From: a virus
Lineage: Duplodnaviria; Caudoviricetes
Reading direction: 5' to 3' (one strand)
Length of the DNA stretch: 64,000 bases
Virus record (IMG/VR): IMGVR_UViG_3300031134_000001
Span: 128,001-192,000 of that record
This document shows, piece after piece, positions 43,138 to 56,330 of the stretch; the stretch's first letter is position 1; every line of letters starts with the position of its first letter. The notes below the pieces were generated by a model that worked only from the letters and a program-made list of their open reading frames with translations, had not been told where the DNA came from and made no database searches. Position numbers and translations under genes: made by a program.

Positions 43138-44697
43138 ATGAACTCCAATAACCAACAACAAGAACCAACCAAATACGTTTTCTCCATCGATGAGGACGGC
43201 GACATCAGCCCGCATGCAGTAAAGGCAGGCACCGCAGTGCCTGAAATCCCAGCCGGCGTTTATACGTTGGTGTATATCGAACCAATGCCTGGTCGCGGCC
43301 CGCAGCTCTATCTGCGCCCAGAAAAGAACTTCCAGATTCCAGAGCGCCTCTACGGCGACGTCAAGCTGAACGTCGATCGCTATCTGCGTTCGTACGAGAT
43401 GAACGACAAGAATCTGGGTGCGCTGTTCATCGGCGAACAAGGTTCGGGTAAAACCATGCAGCTCAAAGCACTGGCGGTGAAAGCTGTCGAGCTGAGCTAC
43501 CCTGTGATCCTGATCAACGAGGTGATTCCAGGTTCGCTCCTGAACTGGTTCCTCTCGACCATTGTTCAGCCTACGCTCGTGTGTTTCGACGAATTCGAGA
43601 AATCGTACGACACCCCCGATAAGCAACGCCCGATCCTGCAGCTGCTCGACGGCACCAACACGGGTAGCAAAAAGATGTACTGCTTCTCGGCCAACGAGCT
43701 CAAGAAGATCAGCCCGCACATGGTCAATCGCCCAAGCCGTATTCGCTATGTGCGCACGTTCCGTCGCCTGGAAATCTCCACGGTGGTGGACTACGTGCAA
43801 ACCAACCTCAAGAACTGTACGGAAGACCACGTCCGTGCGTTCATCCATCTGGCTCTGGCTGACGGTCTGGACGAAGATCGCAAGAACATGTCGAACGGCA
43901 TGAACTTCGACATGATGGCCGAATACGTGCGCGAGATGAACCAATTCCCTGGTTCGCTCAACGAGGTGCTTCACGTGATGGGGTTGAAAGGCAGCGATAC
44001 GTGGGCCCGCTTCGAAGTGAACGGCTTTGTCGACGGCGAGCGGGTGCATCATGCCATGGCGCACGGCACGCACAGCGGCGCCTACGCGGGTAGCGATGAA
44101 TGGTTGATCAACTTCAGTATCCATGTAGAAAAACTGCGTGAGAAAGCTACCGAAGATGAAGTCGACCGCTGGAAATGGGACTACGACAAAGTCGAGCTCA
44201 CCCAGCGCGATTTCAAGAGCTTTGGCGATTCGCATGATTCGCTGATCTTTGAGAAAGATGGCGTGGAATACCACCTGCGCTATATCGACTTCGAGAAATC
44301 GAACAAGCTGAAAATCAAAGTGGAGGAAACCAATTCGGGAAAGCGGCCCGCGCAGCAGCCAAAGACGGCGGCTCTGCGCGTGGAATCGGCCGCGGATTCA
44401 GTTTCCCCATGTCCCTCCCCCTTGACCACAGCTTCGTCTTCCCACTCAGCCTCTCCTTCGGAAGAATGTACCGTGAAGCCTTCGGAGACTACAAGCCAGA
44501 CGACTACGCCGATGGCGGAAATCCAAAAAACATCCGAGAATCCGACGCAAAAGGAATCGAGCAGTCAACCTCCGGAGGAAAAGAACTCGACACCGACACC
44601 AACGAGAAACTCTCTGAAGACGGTGATGATGACGACGATGACGACGAAAGAAAGCCCGAAGGATGCCTCGACTGGTCATGACCCAGATCAGTCGTAA
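43138..44697 (+). CDS. AAA+ ATPase paralogue 1 (frame-0 product, 519 aa)
   Basis: Walker A GEQGSGKT, Walker B CFDEFEK, sensor SAN, NRPSRIRY. Confidence 0.85.
   Translation: MNSNNQQQEPTKYVFSIDEDGDISPHAVKAGTAVPEIPAGVYTLVYIEPMPGRGPQLYLRPEKNFQIPERLYGDVKLNVDRYLRSYEMNDKNLGALFIGEQGSGKTMQLKALAVKAVELSYPVILINEVIPGSLLNWFLSTIVQPTLVCFDEFEKSYDTPDKQRPILQLLDGTNTGSKKMYCFSANELKKISPHMVNRPSRIRYVRTFRRLEISTVVDYVQTNLKNCTEDHVRAFIHLALADGLDEDRKNMSNGMNFDMMAEYVREMNQFPGSLNEVLHVMGLKGSDTWARFEVNGFVDGERVHHAMAHGTHSGAYAGSDEWLINFSIHVEKLREKATEDEVDRWKWDYDKVELTQRDFKSFGDSHDSLIFEKDGVEYHLRYIDFEKSNKLKIKVEETNSGKRPAQQPKTAALRVESAADSVSPCPSPLTTASSSHSASPSEECTVKPSETTSQTTTPMAEIQKTSENPTQKESSSQPPEEKNSTPTPTRNSLKTVMMTTMTTKESPKDASTGHDPDQS
44322..44380 (+). 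promoter_or_regulatory. predicted programmed -1 ribosomal frameshift cassette
   Basis: GGAGG (44322-26), in-phase G GGA AAG (44337-43), 5-nt spacer, hairpin 44349-44380. Confidence 0.65.
44340..44681 (+). CDS. alternative (-1 frame) acidic C-terminal tail of the AAA ATPase
   Basis: Open for 113 codons from the slippery site: KAARAAAKDGG...EDGDDDDDDDERKPEGCLDWS. Confidence 0.55.
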   Translation, partial: KAARAAAKDGGSARGIGRGFSFPMSLPLDHSFVFPLSLSFGRMYREAFGDYKPDDYADGGNPKNIRESDAKGIEQSTSGGKELDTDTNEKLSEDGDDDDDDDERKPEGCLDWS

Positions 44698-44790: not shown

Positions 44791-46227
44791 ATGAACATTC
44801 AAAAACAACAACGCGAAGAAGTCAAGTACGCTTTCGATATCGCAGACGACGGCGTGGTTCGTCCAATGCGTCGAGTGCGTTCGAACATGGTGGCTGAATT
44901 GCCACCGCGGGTATACCGCTTGGTTGTCGATCAGACTGGTCCGCATCTGGTGCCAGAAAACGACTTCAACATGCCGGCACGGGTGTACGGTACATCGAAC
45001 ACCTACGCGCAACGCTTTATCCGCGCATACGAGCTGGGTACCAAAAACCTCGGCGCGTTGCTGATCGGTTTGCCTGGTTCGGGTAAGACCTTGACGCTCA
45101 AGCACGTGGCCATGCTCGCGGTGCAAGCGATGATGCCGGCGATCATCGTCAACACGGCGATCTCCGGTCAGATCCTAACGCAATTCCTCTCGACCATCAC
45201 CCAGCAATGCGTGGTCTGCATGGATGAATTCGACAAGAAATACGGCGGCAAAGATTCGGACGGCGATTCGATCCCGCTGGAGATGCAAGACTCGATCCTG
45301 GAACTGCTCGATGGCGCGACCGTCGGCGAAAAGAAGATGTTCATTCTGACCGCCAACGACGACGGCAAGATCTCGCCTCTGCTCAAGGACCGTCCTAGCC
45401 GGATTCGCTACACGATCAAGTACGCGCAAATCGACCAGGACACCGTCATCGATTATGTCAGCTCCAACCTCAAGAACTGCACGGAGGATCATATCCGCGC
45501 TTTCCTGATGGTGGCCAACGCCGACCGCATGAGTCGCACCGGCATGAACTTCGATTCGATGGTCGAACTCGTGAACGAAATGAACTACTTCGAATGCTCG
45601 CTCGACGAAGCGCTCGAACTCATGCTGCGTAACGGCAAGGAATCCTTCACGTCATTTAATGTCAAGGTGTTCCGTGAAGGCGTGTGGATCGATACTTCAG
45701 CCGGCTTCGGTAGTCATAACGGCGTGTACATGACGAATGGTGACTACGTCCTCACCTTCCAAATGGTGGTGCCGTCGACGCAGGAGGATGTACCCGCCCA
45801 GCGTTACGAGGTGAGACTCACGGCTGATCATTTCGTCGGCTTCGCTGAAAGCCGTTCGGCCTTCGAGTTCAAACTCAATGAGTTCACGTTCATGCTCGAC
45901 ATGGTTGATCAAGCAACAGCCAGTCGAAATAGTACGGCTGCAAAGAACGCTTATGAACAGCGGCCTGACGTGATCGCATACAAAGAGCAGAAGCAAAAGG
46001 AGAAGGAGAAAGAAGCTGCTGAAAAGAACGCGGCAGAAAACGACGATGAAGATGATGGTCTGAAAATCCGTCGTCCGCGGATGTTCGGCATGGATCTGGA
46101 GGCCATGGGCATGGGTCGTCACCATTTGACTAGCCTTATCCGCGATTACGGGACCGAGGTGTCTTCCGATCTGTTGCCGCCGGCGATGAATTTCGGCGCG
46201 CCCGACCCTGACGACAAAGCATCATAA
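44791..46227 (+). CDS. AAA+ ATPase paralogue 2 (478 aa)
   Basis: GLPGSGKT, CMDEFDK, TAN, DRPSRIRY; collinear with 43138. Confidence 0.85.
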   Translation: MNIQKQQREEVKYAFDIADDGVVRPMRRVRSNMVAELPPRVYRLVVDQTGPHLVPENDFNMPARVYGTSNTYAQRFIRAYELGTKNLGALLIGLPGSGKTLTLKHVAMLAVQAMMPAIIVNTAISGQILTQFLSTITQQCVVCMDEFDKKYGGKDSDGDSIPLEMQDSILELLDGATVGEKKMFILTANDDGKISPLLKDRPSRIRYTIKYAQIDQDTVIDYVSSNLKNCTEDHIRAFLMVANADRMSRTGMNFDSMVELVNEMNYFECSLDEALELMLRNGKESFTSFNVKVFREGVWIDTSAGFGSHNGVYMTNGDYVLTFQMVVPSTQEDVPAQRYEVRLTADHFVGFAESRSAFEFKLNEFTFMLDMVDQATASRNSTAAKNAYEQRPDVIAYKEQKQKEKEKEAAEKNAAENDDEDDGLKIRRPRMFGMDLEAMGMGRHHLTSLIRDYGTEVSSDLLPPAMNFGAPDPDDKAS

Positions 46228-52295: not shown

Positions 52296-52880
52296 ATGGA
52301 ATACGACAAACCTCACGGCGCTACTGCGCTGATTCCGGTGCTGCGTCCTGAAAGCGCACAACACTTCGTCGACCCTAGCGACGTCGAGCCACAAGCCATC
52401 AACGACAACCTGAGTACGTCAGCGCTGCGCGTTGGTGTTCGCCTCGATCTTCTGGGTATCAGCAATACCAACGAATCGTTTGGCGCGGACGGCATCGATC
52501 CAGCCATCACCCTGGCCAAGATCTACTACCGCACCAAAAGCGGCGCCGTCCACGAAGTCGATGTGAGCGACATGCCATACAACGCCTTCGTGCCTGCGTA
52601 CCAAGGGAACTACCGCGATGTGACGGTGAACATGTCGCTGGAAGTAAGCATGCTGGGCGAACCTACCACATGGCTCGGTAAGCTGGGCAAGAAGATCGCC
52701 ATGTGGATCGACGGCGACCCTAAGGTGATGTTGCGTTTTACCGGCAACGCCAACCTGCCAATGGGTACGATCCAAGTCGACGCCGTCTCGGACCATCCGG
52801 ACGTAACGCCAATCGGTTATACGGTGTCGGCTTACCGCATCAACATGAGTCGTGTTGGTCGCAGCTGCCCTGCCATGTAA
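52296..52880 (+). CDS. stand-alone protein resembling an internal segment of the phiKZ-like major capsid protein
   Basis: LDLLGIS, D.IDPAITL..IYY, QGNYR, GNANL, GY...AYR.N..R. Confidence 0.55.
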   Translation: MEYDKPHGATALIPVLRPESAQHFVDPSDVEPQAINDNLSTSALRVGVRLDLLGISNTNESFGADGIDPAITLAKIYYRTKSGAVHEVDVSDMPYNAFVPAYQGNYRDVTVNMSLEVSMLGEPTTWLGKLGKKIAMWIDGDPKVMLRFTGNANLPMGTIQVDAVSDHPDVTPIGYTVSAYRINMSRVGRSCPAM

Positions 52881-52901: not shown

Positions 52902-52934
52902 TACCTAGACCTCCTATCATGGGAGGTCTAGGTA
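52902..52934 (+). terminator. intergenic hairpin
   Basis: tacctagacctcct-atcat-gggaggtctaggta. Confidence 0.65.
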
Positions 52935-53013: not shown

Positions 53014-54102
53014 ATGAAAAACATCACGCTCGAATACCTGTTCAACATGCTGGCCAGTCGCACTGGCGGCATCCGTTGGGATGACACTGTTGAAATCTCA
53101 CGGTTGGAAGAAGGTAAGTCGTCGAACAGTCTGTCCGCTGAATGTTATTCCAAAGATTCGGAAGAAACCATTGCTAAAGTTTTGCAGTATTTGCATAGCC
53201 GGCACTACATCACAAAACAAGACAACATGCAAGCCCTTCGTAGCATCAAGGGTTTTCGAATGCTGCCCGAAGAAAAATGCATCAACACATACGTCTCGGT
53301 TAGTACAGGTTCAATGTACGATAATGAGGTTAACATTCATATCACGGGTGACCCGCAAGAATGTGATATCGTGATGGTGTGGTTCAAAGAAAACTTCAAG
53401 CAACTCGGTTCAACCGTCCGAACTGCGATCGGACTTAATCGCAATGGCGGTATCGACTACGACAGCGCTTTCATGCATCCTGATAAAGTGCGTCTGTCGC
53501 GCCAAAGCTTCTACCCATGGTTGTCGGTGCCTATCGAAGAATACGCCAAGGCGTATATGGCTGCCGAAGAATCGGTTCTGGTGATGTTCGGACCGCCGGG
53601 CACACTCAAGAGTACGTTCCTGCGCACGTTGATCGCCTACAGCGGCACTGACGCTGTCCTCGCATTCAACGAAGGTGTGATCCAATCACCAGAGCTGTTG
53701 CGTTCGTACTTCAACTTGAATCGTACCAACATCTTGGCGTACGAAGACATCGACCGCCATCTCGGCCATCGTTCGGACGATAACCCAATGATGTCGTCGT
53801 TACTTAACGCTGCCGACGGGGTAGTGCAGCGCATCGGTAAGAAGTTGATCTTCGTGACCAATCTCCCCAACGTTGATCGCATCGATGAAGCGCTGCTCCG
53901 CCAAGGTCGTTGCTACGACATTCTCGACTTCCGTCTTCTGACGCGGGACGAAGCTGCTGCCATTCGTGTCGACATGAAGTTGCCCCCCATGGACTTTAGC
54001 AGTAAAGAGAAGTGGTCGGGCGCGGAAGCGTTGTCCACTCACGATGTTCATCGCCAGCGCGTGAACCGCTTCGGTAACAAGCTCGGCTTTACCAACAGCT
54101 AA
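53014..54102 (+). CDS. AAA+ ATPase 3 with an atypical Walker A
   Basis: GPPGTLKS, AYEDID, FVTN, DEALLRQGR. Confidence 0.8.
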   Translation: MKNITLEYLFNMLASRTGGIRWDDTVEISRLEEGKSSNSLSAECYSKDSEETIAKVLQYLHSRHYITKQDNMQALRSIKGFRMLPEEKCINTYVSVSTGSMYDNEVNIHITGDPQECDIVMVWFKENFKQLGSTVRTAIGLNRNGGIDYDSAFMHPDKVRLSRQSFYPWLSVPIEEYAKAYMAAEESVLVMFGPPGTLKSTFLRTLIAYSGTDAVLAFNEGVIQSPELLRSYFNLNRTNILAYEDIDRHLGHRSDDNPMMSSLLNAADGVVQRIGKKLIFVTNLPNVDRIDEALLRQGRCYDILDFRLLTRDEAAAIRVDMKLPPMDFSSKEKWSGAEALSTHDVHRQRVNRFGNKLGFTNS

Positions 54103-54602: not shown

Positions 54603-56288
54603 ATGTTTAACCAACGTTTCGGCTTTACCCGTCCAGGCACCCAGAACATCGCAACTACCTGGGTCAGATCTTTCAACAGTCTCATCGCAGGTCACTCAGA
54701 CCTGCCGGATGTGTTGGTGTTCGCCCACGACCACAACACTAAACCGGATGGCTCGCCGTTGACGTCGAACCCAACCGCACGACCTTTCATTCAAACCGTG
54801 GGTGTGGCTGTTGGCGCCAACGGCGAGTGGGGTTTGGCGATCTTTGCACCACACGGCATGCTGGAATCCGCGCCGCAGAGCGAACGCGTTGACTACATGA
54901 ACAGCAGCCCGTCAGTGATGTCAGCCATTTACAAGCTGGCGGCCGAACGTAATGTCGAAGCGACAGCGATCCACTTTAACAGTGTGCTTGTCGACACGGT
55001 CGGTCTCGATCCAAACGACCCTGAGGTAGTGCGTCGGCTGCTGTCGGCGCTGCTCAACCGCGCAGAGAGCAGTCTGGGTCGTGTTCTGGCTGAACGGGAA
55101 AAGGAAGCATTGCCAGGCATGATCGACTTCAATGAAGCTCGTGGTCGCGTTGTGCTCGAACAGAACGTAAGTTACGAAAATCCAGTGCTGCGTGATCTCC
55201 TCGGCAAGATCGTCCGTAACGACTACGTCTTTACCTTGACTGTCAAAGAACCACCACGCCGTGACAGCGTGGTCGAGCCGGTGATAACGACGTTACTCAA
55301 GGTCAGCGGCTACGTTGACTTTAAGCGTGCGCCAACCGAATCGAATCCAGGCCAGCCATGGAACATCCAACCTCTGCGCTACTTGCCAGAATTCATCATT
55401 ACCGATATCGACAACGGGAGCGGTGAAATGACGGCGATGCATGAACAGCAAGCCACCATGTTCGCTATTGCCATGGTGGCGCAATACATGCGTGCGGGTC
55501 GGTGGACGGAGCGCCACATGGCGCACCTGAAAACCCACAACGAGAAAGACTTGACGTTGTTGTTCGATACTCAGCAGCGCGAAGTATTCATCCGTGAAAA
55601 ACACCAGAACGGTTACGCCGCCATGGCAGACCTGGCCAGCAAAATCCTGTCTCCTGGCTTCCTGCTGTCGATTGATATCCCGCAAAATCCAACCGGCAAC
55701 ATGGAACTCAGGACACTTTTCGAAGTTGTGGTGCGCCACTCGACGTCGATCGTATCGATGTTCAATGATGTCGCAGCTAGCCTGGGTCGGGACGACTACT
55801 ACGGTCGTTATGCTAATCCTAACGACCTTGGTAACGCCTACTTGCCCTCGGTGATGGTGCCGATGGGTTCCATGGTTGTTGTCGAGAAAGCTGGTAAGTT
55901 CGAGTGTGATGTTCGTCAGATGGACACGCTGCGCGCTTTGCATGTTTGCGAAGAAGCAGTTAGTGCGGGCAGTAACCGCGTGAACATCCAGAAGATGGCA
56001 TCGAATTATCTGGACCTGTTCTATCTGCAACATACGTCCAACGCTCATCGTGGTCAGTCTGGTCCATCGACGTTCGGTCGCGGCGGCCACATGGCTTACG
56101 AGCACGCAGCCTTTCTGAAGCATGTGAGCATGACGCCGGAATACTACAATGTGGCGCATCGCACAACGTTCAATGGCCAGTTTGTCAACCTCGTGGTGAA
56201 CTTGTTGGGTTCCAGCGGTTTGGACATCCGAACAGACGACCAGACGAAGGCTTTGCTGACGGCTGACCATCAGGCGATCGTGCTGTAA
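54603..56288 (+). CDS. chimallin (ChmA, nuclear shell protein)-like protein, truncated at the C-terminus
   Basis: Ordered motifs match remembered ChmA: RLL..LLN, D..G..VR.D, V.G.VD..R.P, IITD, F.I, RW, SID, MG, D.R..D.L.AL, A.R.TFN..F, GL.I..D. Confidence 0.7.
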   Translation: MFNQRFGFTRPGTQNIATTWVRSFNSLIAGHSDLPDVLVFAHDHNTKPDGSPLTSNPTARPFIQTVGVAVGANGEWGLAIFAPHGMLESAPQSERVDYMNSSPSVMSAIYKLAAERNVEATAIHFNSVLVDTVGLDPNDPEVVRRLLSALLNRAESSLGRVLAEREKEALPGMIDFNEARGRVVLEQNVSYENPVLRDLLGKIVRNDYVFTLTVKEPPRRDSVVEPVITTLLKVSGYVDFKRAPTESNPGQPWNIQPLRYLPEFIITDIDNGSGEMTAMHEQQATMFAIAMVAQYMRAGRWTERHMAHLKTHNEKDLTLLFDTQQREVFIREKHQNGYAAMADLASKILSPGFLLSIDIPQNPTGNMELRTLFEVVVRHSTSIVSMFNDVAASLGRDDYYGRYANPNDLGNAYLPSVMVPMGSMVVVEKAGKFECDVRQMDTLRALHVCEEAVSAGSNRVNIQKMASNYLDLFYLQHTSNAHRGQSGPSTFGRGGHMAYEHAAFLKHVSMTPEYYNVAHRTTFNGQFVNLVVNLLGSSGLDIRTDDQTKALLTADHQAIVL

Positions 56289-56291
56289 TAC

Positions 56292-56330
56292 AAGAGAGCT
56301 AGGGGGTAACACCCCTAGCTCTCTTTTTTT
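56292..56330 (+). terminator. Rho-independent terminator
   Basis: aagagagctagggg/cccctagctctctt followed by a T run. Confidence 0.9.

Follow-up and report, generated by a model that had tools for sequence, protein, structure and literature searches.

A second, short chimallin in an uncultured nucleus-forming jumbo phage, a possible accessory subunit of the phage nuclear shell

The gene P0001, which is described here, is carried by an uncultured nucleus-forming jumbo phage with a genome of ~271 kb. It lies in a window of 64,000 nucleotides (the whole stretch of DNA that was analyzed, positions 128,001 to 192,000 of IMG/VR record IMGVR_UViG_3300031134_000001), in a terminator-bounded position within a block of small genes without assigned function (Table 1). 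The ATG of P0001 is the first start within an open frame of 569 codons and is preceded by a ribosome-binding site of the same kind as that in front of the canonical chimallin gene of this phage. Directly 3' of the gene, an intrinsic terminator ends the transcription unit; the predicted RNA fold has a dG of -28 kcal/mol and a z score of -7.8, and none of 200 shuffled sequences was as stable. The C-terminus of P0001 is the true end of the gene, a stop codon followed by the terminator.

The open reading frame immediately upstream had no match in Pfam or PHROGs. A relationship between this frame and the 133-aa 'Acb2_Tad1_hairpin' reading frame of locus L004 was considered and rejected: the two share no similarity, and the Pfam match was not reproduced. 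The AAA ATPase encoded further upstream is a homologue of PHIKZ208 and of FLC9 gp106. Genes for this ATPase adjoin the short chimallin on its upstream side in three other loci (L004, L009 and L010) and lie within two small reading frames of it in the window and in L018; the short-chimallin locus of the closest relative has none. In FLC9 and phiKZ the ATPase is present, with no chimallin-like reading frame nearby. The partial paralogue of the PhiKZ-type major capsid protein is encoded in addition to a full-length capsid protein elsewhere in the genome, and the 194-aa paralogue also occurs near the short chimallin in L004, L007, L009 and L010. No defense or anti-defense families were found among the neighbors of P0001.

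Table 1. Coordinates of the features discussed (positions in the window unless marked as genome positions)
Feature	Position	Strand	Details
Partial PhiKZ-type major capsid protein paralogue, 194 aa	52296..52880	+	PF25620 E 5e-20, profile positions 144-315 of 635
AAA ATPase, 362 aa	53014..54102	+	PF00004 E 8e-10; phrog_14322 E 8e-59; tblastn
141-aa ORF directly upstream of P0001	54116..54541	+	99% identical in closest relative
Ribosome-binding site of P0001	54588..54596	+	AAAAGGAAA, Shine-Dalgarno-like, 6 nt before ATG
P0001, short chimallin paralogue gene	54603..56288	+	561 aa, stop codon included
Residues 1-10, probable NTS-like N-terminal peptide	54603..54632	+	no N-tail ahead
Residues 11-546, complete chimallin core (modeled)	54633..56240	+	VIA-align on 201phi2-1
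Residues 547-561, 15-residue C-terminal stub	56241..56285	+	alignment; family ends
Intrinsic terminator after P0001	56292..56332	+	14-bp G+C-rich stem, 6-nt loop, T-run
Canonical resident ChmA, 673 aa	genome 86573-88594		PF25677 77 bits; phrog_4795 E 3e-45; phiPA3 PhuN E 9e-8

P0001 is a true paralogue of chimallin (ChmA/PhuN), the protein of the phage nuclear shell, with a homology that is far above chance yet visible solely at the level of profiles or folds. As a single sequence, it had no match in Pfam (at E up to 1) or PHROGs, and it reached only E 0.76 against the chimallins in the PDB; when the whole genome was scanned with PF25677 and phrog_4795, the canonical gene alone was matched. 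P0002, which is 86% identical to P0001, carries a precomputed PF25677.3 match in its source database, and phrog_4795 ('nuclear shell protein') was matched by all nine of the distant relatives. The family profile of P0001 recovered the solved chimallins of Goslar (E 3.6e-24), phiPA3 (1.9e-15) and 201phi2-1 (1.3e-13), and hhalign aligned the P0001 family with the family of the resident canonical ChmA at a probability of 98.9% (E 1e-17, 501 columns, P0001 residues 3-556 on ChmA residues 61-631); the sequence identity to that family is 13-16%. Both kinds of protein carry the G-x-P-[VI]-R-x-D motif, a conserved Trp, D-x-R-x-x-D-x-L and a C-terminal helix preceding a G-L-x-I strand; the shared residues are distributed over the core, and the acidic net charge that is typical of shell protomers is kept. 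The first-pass annotation had called P0001 a chimallin homologue on the strength of four matches to the 201phi2-1 protein. All four occupy matching columns in the alignment of the family profile with PDB 7sqq_A, and the profile, hhalign and Foldseek results bear out the call.

The AlphaFold (AF2) model of P0001 has a pLDDT of 73.8 and a pTM of 0.81, and because its input alignment included canonical chimallins, the fold and the sequence homology are not entirely separate lines of evidence; AlphaFold run on the single sequence gave a pLDDT of 36, and the ESM Atlas model has a pTM of 0.21. In Foldseek, the nine best matches of the model are all chimallins (E 1e-18 to 2e-21, TM 0.60-0.67), and the best match outside this family has an E value of 0.02. 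Superposition on the solved chimallins with VIA-align yields Z scores of 25-26.5 over ~460 residues; on the 201phi2-1 protein, model residues 11-546 cover residues 61-581 (Z 25, rmsd 4.2 A, 459 aligned). Compared with the domain limits described for 201phi2-1 chimallin (Laughlin et al. 2022, PMC9365700), P0001 is predicted to consist of an N-terminal alpha+beta domain (about residues 11-180) and a GNAT-like C-terminal domain (about 181-546), so that, as modeled, the complete two-domain core of the chimallin protomer is retained.

The first-pass annotation had also placed this homologue off the core locus of DNA polymerase, ChmA and nvRNAP genes, and had suggested a search of the full genome for a canonical chmA. 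The search found a 673-aa ChmA, and the placement holds. The resident canonical gene lies 96 kb upstream of P0001, outside the window, and is followed by an nvRNAP-beta'-like gene; the residues of its C-terminal tail are invariant across 16 relatives. It is this copy, and not P0001, that occupies the position between the DNA polymerase block and nvRNAP beta', which is also the position of canonical chmA in RAY, Goslar, SA002, RSF1, Eowyn and related metagenomic contigs. P0001 is thus a second chimallin beside a fully tailed ChmA, and it has the chimallin fold, so that neither of the two findings that would have spoken against the early assessment (absence of the ChmA fold, or of any other ChmA in the genome) was obtained. 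The chimallin of Erwinia phage RAY lies at nearly the same coordinates as P0001 (~182 kb of 271 kb); this is a coincidence, as the RAY protein, gp222, is canonical and nvRNAP-adjacent.

The two ends of the protein set P0001 apart from canonical chimallins. Beyond the core, P0001 has a tail of 15 residues, compared to 50 residues (linker, CTS1, linker and CTS2) in 201phi2-1 and about 45-60 in the canonical relatives compared. With a stub of this length, CTS1 and CTS2, the arms that reach neighboring tetramers, are absent, as had been claimed from the sequence at first sight. That original description of the truncation nevertheless needs to be refined in two respects. First-pass reading had addressed the C-terminus, and the N-tail is missing too, with an NTS-like peptide probably kept in front of the core; moreover, the truncation is real but ancient, common to the whole short family rather than specific to P0001. 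The N-terminal peptide holds the motif F-x-F-T-R-P-G, which extends to residue 12 and is similar to the F-T-R-S-G of the 201phi2-1 NTS, with NTS regions seen in 201phi2-1, phiPA3 and the resident ChmA as the comparison. Residues 1-17 are identical between P0001 and P0002, and variability in the protein peaks in the 60 residues that follow. This short peptide has the length, the position and an aromatic-x-basic-x-Gly motif similar to those of the chimallin NTS, of which it is a candidate homologue; in the model, residues 1-10 and the C-terminal stub both have a pLDDT below 50.

The short chimallins form an old, monophyletic and fast-evolving family that is so far confined to uncultured jumbo phages. 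At least 11 cluster representatives of 510-569 aa were identified, and 11 of 11 stop at the same point, 10-20 residues past the core; in the tree, they make up one bipartition with a support of 100/100. The short and canonical forms occur together in a JGI contig of 269,010 bp (short P0004, canonical P0017) and in IMG/VR record G001. A third genome of roughly 270 kb seems to hold both forms as well: short P0006 comes from an ENA contig of 273,893 bp and canonical P0028 from a record with a longest contig of equal size, and it is on this equality that the co-occurrence rests. A tblastn search of 50,697 phage records with P0001 gave no match, and nothing was found when viral and metagenome contigs were searched with P0001 or viral contigs with P0007; the short form did not appear in any cultured phage searched. 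The sole addition from a family-profile search of 5.8 billion proteins, P0013, was rejected because the tree assigns it to the canonical AgentSmith-like chimallins. No second or paralogous chimallin was found in the literature searched, a scope that most subscription journals fall outside.

P0001 is under purifying selection, with a dN/dS of 0.26, and its dN is the highest among the neighboring genes. In genome pairs with 48-60% identity between their canonical ChmAs, the short copies share 26-28%, and the terminal branches of the tree are 1.2-1.9 substitutions per site for short compared to 0.05-0.4 for canonical members; the short copy diverges two to three times as fast as the resident ChmA. 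The purifying selection, the intact frame in 11 divergent representatives that share a common end point, the proper ribosome-binding site and terminator, and the conserved locus, dispose of the reading of P0001 as a decaying truncated duplicate of chmA. In favor of decay, or of P0001 being the only chimallin of the phage, one could cite its length, which is below that of canonical ChmA, and its failure to match Pfam and PHROGs in direct searches. The intact frames, the dN/dS of 0.26 and the resident ChmA exclude both possibilities, to which we assign practically no probability.

What P0001 does is a matter of graded likelihood. Canonical chimallin, an abundant early protein, assembles into a square lattice around the replicating phage DNA. 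Deletion of the NTS or the CTS ends the self-assembly of chimallin in vitro, and truncated protomers partly enter the wild-type shell in vivo without breaking it; the same study predicted undiscovered minor components of the shell and called for their identification (Laughlin et al. 2022, PMC9365700). By analogy with these constructs, P0001 may be an accessory shell subunit that co-assembles with canonical ChmA, an interpretation that we favor tentatively, at a little short of an even chance. Because deletion of the CTS abolishes assembly in vitro, P0001 would be unable to build or propagate a lattice by itself. The retained NTS-like peptide would serve the contact within the tetramer, and P0001 would be held in the lattice solely by the CTS arms received from its canonical neighbors, to which it would return none. 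The result would be local sites with fewer ties between tetramers, which might act as looser corner pores, as flexible or openable patches, or as points of docking or insertion. The first-pass annotation had suggested a lattice edge, pore or cap, or a poison of co-infecting phages, and none of these specific roles gained support from the analysis. A complex prediction pairing the P0001 core with ChmA residues 612-673 from the resident copy, run without controls, scored 0.00 and counts neither way.

The fast evolution of P0001 counts against a lattice subunit, which would have to stay matched to a slowly evolving partner, and fits an arms-race or neofunctionalised protein better. Among the alternatives, we regard as unlikely, but the least so, that P0001 is a soluble regulator or chaperone of assembly that caps the tails (CTS or NTS) of ChmA freshly synthesized in the cytoplasm and so controls the site and timing of shell nucleation and growth, with the AAA ATPase possibly recycling the complexes. 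The architecture, with the core kept and the arms lost, fits such a role; the binding of CTS1 to the C-terminal domain of ChmA resembles that of the antitoxin AtaR to the toxin AtaT (Laughlin et al. 2022, PMC9365700), which would make the core a natural peptide receptor; and the ATPase gene is a recurrent neighbor of the short chimallin. However, the closest relative keeps its short chimallin without an AAA gene at this spot, the gene is also common among chimalliviruses without a short copy (for example as PHIKZ208 and FLC9 gp106), and capping of tails alone needs no NTS-like peptide. Somewhat less probable is a role in conflict, as a decoy that sequesters a chimallin-recognizing factor, be it an immune sensor of the host or a rival factor, or as a dominant-negative poison of the nucleus of co-infecting phages, the latter having been among the early suggestions. 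Such a role is consistent with the rapid divergence and the highest dN in the neighborhood, with the nearby gene for a shortened paralogue of the major capsid protein, the phage's other big self-assembling protein, and with the placement of P0001 in a block of small genes, where it is bounded by its own terminator. Yet the dN/dS denotes overall purifying selection in a test that is crude and carries no sign of positive selection, the neighbors include no detected defense or anti-defense family, and we know of no host sensor of chimallin. The poison variant is further weakened because over-expressed truncated protomers left the 201phi2-1 shell intact (Laughlin et al. 2022, PMC9365700).

Slightly less probable again is neofunctionalisation unrelated to the shell, whereby P0001 would be a GNAT-based enzyme, a nucleic-acid binder, or a component of the virion or of early infection. 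The low identity to the resident ChmA family is compatible with such a shift, and the C-terminal domain is still similar to the GNAT tRNA-acetylating toxins: KacT and AtaT match the model from residue 183-184 onward in VIA-align, with Z scores of 5-6. This similarity to the fold of AtaT, KacT and TacT is inherited from ChmA, for which it has already been reported (Laughlin et al. 2022, PMC9365700), rather than specific to P0001, which in addition has an N-terminal domain that the toxins lack. The acetyl-CoA motif Q/R-x-x-G-x-G/A is not conserved in the family: no alignment column carries it in at least three of the 11 short members. Furthermore, both domains and the NTS-like peptide keep their original arrangement, together with the acidic charge, and the residues in common with canonical ChmA are spread over the core.

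Returning to the accessory-subunit interpretation, among the closest counterparts of P0001 are the engineered truncations of the 201phi2-1 protein (delta-N-tail, delta-CTS2 and delta-CTS1+2; PMC9365700), of which P0001 approximates delta-N-tail combined with delta-CTS1+2. Those constructs were made in the laboratory by deletion within the major shell protein, whereas P0001 is a separate and strongly diverged gene that selection has long maintained next to an intact ChmA. Compared to the canonical chimallins (201phi2-1 gp105, 7SQQ-7SQS and 8IGG; Goslar, 7SQT-7SQV; phiPA3 PhuN, 8FNE), P0001 has the same core, hallmarks and acidic charge but no N-tail, CTS1 or CTS2, is 60-150 residues shorter, lies away from the DNA polymerase and nvRNAP genes as a second copy, and evolves faster. 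ChmB, ChmC/Imp6 and PicA/Imp1, which are minor or associated proteins of the phage nucleus (review PMC13282480), represent the same type of role as that proposed here, namely low-abundance modifiers of an otherwise uniform ChmA lattice in docking, transport or growth; to our knowledge, none of them has a chimallin fold.

A more far-reaching proposal, which we consider fairly unlikely, is that some uncultured chimalliviruses, as a clade, build a shell of two components, in which P0001-type subunits among canonical protomers would create defined weak or openable sites. Proteins might be imported or capsids docked at these sites, which would then act as gates, or new subunits might be inserted there, and the trimmed capsid-protein paralogue might have an analogous role in the capsid lattice. 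If this proposal is true, P0001 would be the first accessory protein of the shell to have evolved from chimallin.

In the usual picture, one protein forms the lattice of the phage nucleus and unrelated minor factors decorate it, and its growth, its opening for capsid docking and the passage of proteins are open questions. The present results show that chimallin has duplicated and diversified. As a natural counterpart of the delta-CTS constructs, P0001 is a ready-made probe of lattice design that could show what a non-propagating protomer does in the shell, and co-assembly with its partner could be attempted in vitro. When phages are called nucleus-forming from chimallin hits, the match may be an accessory copy.

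P0001, the short chimallin, is the second chimallin of this genome. A search of the whole genome for canonical chmA (PF25677 Chimallin_Phikzvirus, phrog_4795) yielded one strong match, outside the window (77 bits to PF25677, E 3e-45 to phrog_4795). The corresponding 673-aa ORF, P0003, matches phiPA3 PhuN (E 9e-8) and has a complete tail, with final residues invariant among 16 relatives. The gene that follows has a zinc-ribbon start, typical of the nvRNAP beta' subunit; an RNA polymerase subunit gene adjoins canonical chmA in RAY, Goslar, SA002, RSF1 and Eowyn, and a DNA polymerase gene lies upstream of it in RAY and Goslar. The short chimallin is located outside the core locus, as the first-pass annotation had claimed; it lies 96 kb downstream of canonical chmA, and the presence of P0003 in the same genome excludes P0001 as the sole ChmA.

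The ORF of the short chimallin is genuine. Its frame (569 aa) opens merely 8 codons 5' of the ATG, so that P0001 has no hidden N-terminal extension, and the start is preceded by a ribosome-binding site, AAAAGGAAA, of the same kind as that before canonical chmA. At most 4 nt after the stop codon, there is a 14-bp G+C-rich hairpin with a T-run (dG -28 kcal/mol, z -7.8); its position directly after the stop implies that the short C-terminus is the true gene end and rules out a frameshift as its cause. Antisense ORFs run across both chimallin genes and look like unsupported by-products of codon composition; longest-ORF calling, applied naively, took the antisense ORF instead of canonical chmA.

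As a single sequence, P0001 gave zero matches in Pfam and PHROGs, no tblastn match among 50,697 phage records and, at best, E 0.76 against the chimallins in the PDB. When 1.84 billion cluster representatives were searched exhaustively with HMMER, ten relatives of 510-569 aa emerged, and all nine distant ones match phrog_4795, 'nuclear shell protein' (E 4e-22 to 1e-3). The profile of these 11 sequences detects the chimallins of known structure from Goslar (E 3.6e-24), phiPA3 (1.9e-15) and 201phi2-1 (1.3e-13), its positions 17-537 aligning with residues 68-586 of the 201phi2-1 chain; the four segment pairs by which the first-pass annotation had recognized a chimallin all fall in the same aligned columns. 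With hhalign, the short family aligns to the resident canonical ChmA and its relatives (16 members) over 501 columns (probability 98.9%, E 1e-17; P0001 3-556 on P0003 61-631). The AlphaFold2 model of P0001, built from a 28-row alignment (pLDDT 73.8, pTM 0.81), has the ChmA fold: the nine best Foldseek matches in the PDB are chimallins (E 1e-18 to 2e-21, TM 0.60-0.67), the next match has E 0.02, and VIA-align superposes 454-467 residues on chimallins at 4.2-4.5 A rmsd (Z 25-26.5). Because the input alignment held canonical chimallins, this match is corroboration rather than independent proof. Some short-family members carry precomputed PF25677 tags, evidently from newer Pfam releases; automatic annotation would label such proteins 'chimallin' and overlook their status as tail-less second copies.

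In the 201phi2-1 chimallin, the N-tail (1-47), NTS (48-61) and N-terminal domain (62-228) precede a GNAT-like C-terminal domain (229-581) and a tail made of a linker (582-589), CTS1 (590-611), another linker (612-621) and CTS2 (622-631); the NTS joins protomers inside one tetramer, and CTS1 and CTS2 extend into two further protomers, joining tetramers (Laughlin et al. 2022, PMC9365700). The absence of the C-terminal assembly segments from P0001 is borne out, only a stub being left after a complete core. All 11 members of the short family end 10-20 residues past the core, whereas all canonical chimallins retrieved have about 45-60 more residues there and end in aromatic or basic ones; a small R-P motif in the stub of most short members is lost in P0001 and in its closest relative, P0002. 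The original description can be refined in that the N-tail is also gone and P0001 has probably kept an NTS-like peptide. The N-terminal motif of P0001 resembles those of the NTS in 201phi2-1 (Q-F-T-R-S-G), phiPA3 (I-F-Q-R-S-G) and the resident ChmA (L-F-S-R-G-R), and similar hydrophobic-Phe-x-basic-Gly/Ser peptides directly precede the first helix in other short-family members. This peptide may function as an NTS; its model pLDDT is below 50, as expected of a segment that becomes ordered only on a partner. GNAT toxins superpose on the model from residue ~183 on, and P0001 is acidic (pI 6.0, net charge -9), as are canonical shell protomers.

Positions of the two chimallin genes, their counterparts and neighbouring features
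Feature	Sequence	Position	Strand	Remark
Paralogous ATPase genes	window	43138-44697	+	519 aa
	window	44791-46227	+	478 aa
Mini-MCP	window	52296-52880	+	194 aa
	L004	7762-8376
	L007	8797-9381
	L009	5084-6545
	L010	6470-7306
Hairpin	window	52902-52934		perfect, 13 bp
AAA ATPase	window	53014-54102	+	PHIKZ208/FLC9 gp106 homologue; near short chimallin also in L004, L009, L010, L018
Site missing AAA ATPase	L007	9381-9514
Short chimallin	window	54603-56288	+	561 aa
NTS-position peptide	P0001	1-10		F-G-F-T-R-P-G, running into next residues
Complete core	P0001	11-546		superposes on 201phi2-1 61-581 (VIA-align)
C-terminal stub	P0001	547-561		15 residues
Antisense ORF, short chimallin	window	55293-56312	-	339 aa
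Antisense ORF, canonical chmA	L002	892-2973	-	693 aa
Canonical chmA	genome	86.6-88.6 kb
Full MCP	genome	241014-242897
Canonical P0017	Ga0466962_0000001	64.9-66.9 kb
Short P0004	Ga0466962_0000001	159.4-161.0 kb
Third phrog_4795 match	G001:C1 (L015)	210927-211079		95-aa frame, profile positions 456-510

The short chimallin belongs to a small but conserved family of 11 clusters at 50% identity and is no isolated case; in the P0008-P0012 branch, the contigs read, those of P0008 and P0010, are short. Canonical and short copies are both present on the JGI contig Ga0466962_0000001 (269,010 bp), at the same spacing as here and with the order DNA polymerase, phiKZ_IP, 364-aa gene, ChmA, 457-aa gene at the canonical locus, and in a related 226-kb IMG/VR record, G001, where phrog_4795 matches very weakly at a third place (E 0.004), probably as noise. 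Short P0006 lies on an ENA contig of 273,893 bp, and we infer that it co-occurs with canonical P0028, whose longest contig is listed at that same length. The local order is conserved as well: a partial paralogue of the major capsid protein (mini-MCP), small ORFs, an AAA ATPase and the short chimallin. The short-type gene is absent from the cultured phages of the collection, in which P0004 matches only the canonical 'nuclear shell protein', one per record. The PHIKZ208-like ATPase is widespread among chimalliviruses without the short copy, and a profile search around the FLC9 and phiKZ ATPase genes revealed no chimallin-like ORF. A second or paralogous chimallin is described nowhere in the literature searched, which included the core-genome paper on Chimalliviridae, a 2026 review and a metagenomic survey from 2025 of phages that encode chimallin; most subscription journals were outside its scope, and this silence is absence of evidence.

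A maximum-likelihood tree built from 30 sequences separates the 11 short proteins from all 19 canonical ones by a single bipartition (100/100 support), the canonical set including proteins from phages of Pseudomonas, Erwinia, Escherichia, Klebsiella, Salmonella, Ralstonia, Burkholderia and Bacillus; the tree is unrooted and leaves the attachment point of the short clade on the canonical subtree unplaced. The duplication may be older than the sampled Chimalliviridae, or it may have arisen in the short clade, which then accelerated. Terminal branches of the short proteins span 1.2-1.9 substitutions per site, except for the near-identical P0001 and P0002, compared to 0.05-0.4 in the resident canonical clade, and the same genome pairs share 26-28% identity in the short copies vs 48-60% in the canonical ones. 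Between P0001 and P0002 (86% identical), dN/dS is 0.26, and dN is the highest among six neighbouring genes; selection on the short chimallin is thus purifying yet comparatively relaxed. The substitutions cluster in residues 18-80 and 401-440, and residues 1-17 are identical.

Chimallin lacking the NTS or the CTS does not self-assemble in vitro; in infected cells, truncated protomers partly enter the wild-type shell, which stays unbroken even under their high expression (Laughlin et al. 2022, PMC9365700). P0001 has, as a natural protein, the architecture of a chimallin with N-tail and CTS1+2 deleted, and should therefore fail to propagate a lattice alone but be capable of sitting in or on the lattice of the resident ChmA. 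Our preferred reading, held tentatively and, its shown part included, at a little short of even confidence, is that P0001 may be an accessory shell subunit. CTS arms reaching in from other protomers, together with an NTS-type contact of P0001 itself, would keep it in the lattice, and inter-tetramer ties would be fewer wherever it sits.

The strongest competing reading, in which a soluble P0001 binds ChmA tails and so regulates how ChmA assembles, appears unlikely. The fast evolution of the short chimallin is consistent with a conflict role, as a decoy or in interference between phages, which we consider quite improbable; its poison version is at odds with the failure of the published truncated protomers to disrupt shells. 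Also improbable is a new function unrelated to the shell, given that the chimallin architecture is preserved and the acetyl-CoA motif is absent. The pseudogene reading is excluded.

Among the neighbouring genes, the mini-MCP matches only positions 144-315 of 635 in the PhiKZ major-capsid-protein model (E 5e-20), and a full MCP is encoded elsewhere in the genome. Related contigs keep the mini-MCP gene 1-3 kb ahead of the short chimallin, so that each of the two large self-assembling proteins has a trimmed paralogue at the locus; in cultured phages, the mini-MCP matches only one place per record, the annotated major capsid gene where the record is annotated. The AAA ATPase is missing at this spot in the P0002 locus, between flanking genes that are 89-99% identical, which marks a recent gene-sized indel. 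The hairpin between the mini-MCP and AAA ATPase genes scored as a minus-strand terminator among genes all on the plus strand, and may bound a unit of the AAA ATPase, a 141-aa ORF and the short chimallin.

The 271,026-bp IMG/VR record, from which the window takes bases 128001-192000, has direct terminal repeats and a completeness rating of 100%. With its canonical chimallin, nvRNAP-beta'-like gene, PhiKZ-type major capsid protein and PHIKZ208-like AAA ATPase, it is an uncultured, divergent, Chimalliviridae-like, nucleus-forming jumbo phage; the closest cultured chimallin, that of Burkholderia phage FLC9, is just 25% identical. PhuZ appears to be missing, because a scan of the complete 271-kb genome gave no tubulin (PF00091) match; Erwinia phage Asesino likewise lacks PhuZ. 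G+C is ~0.49-0.57 across the window, with no local anomaly at the short-chimallin site. The two adjacent paralogous ATPase genes each match phrog_2376 (E ~1e-58), and related contigs have a single nSTAND/AAA-like gene in their place.
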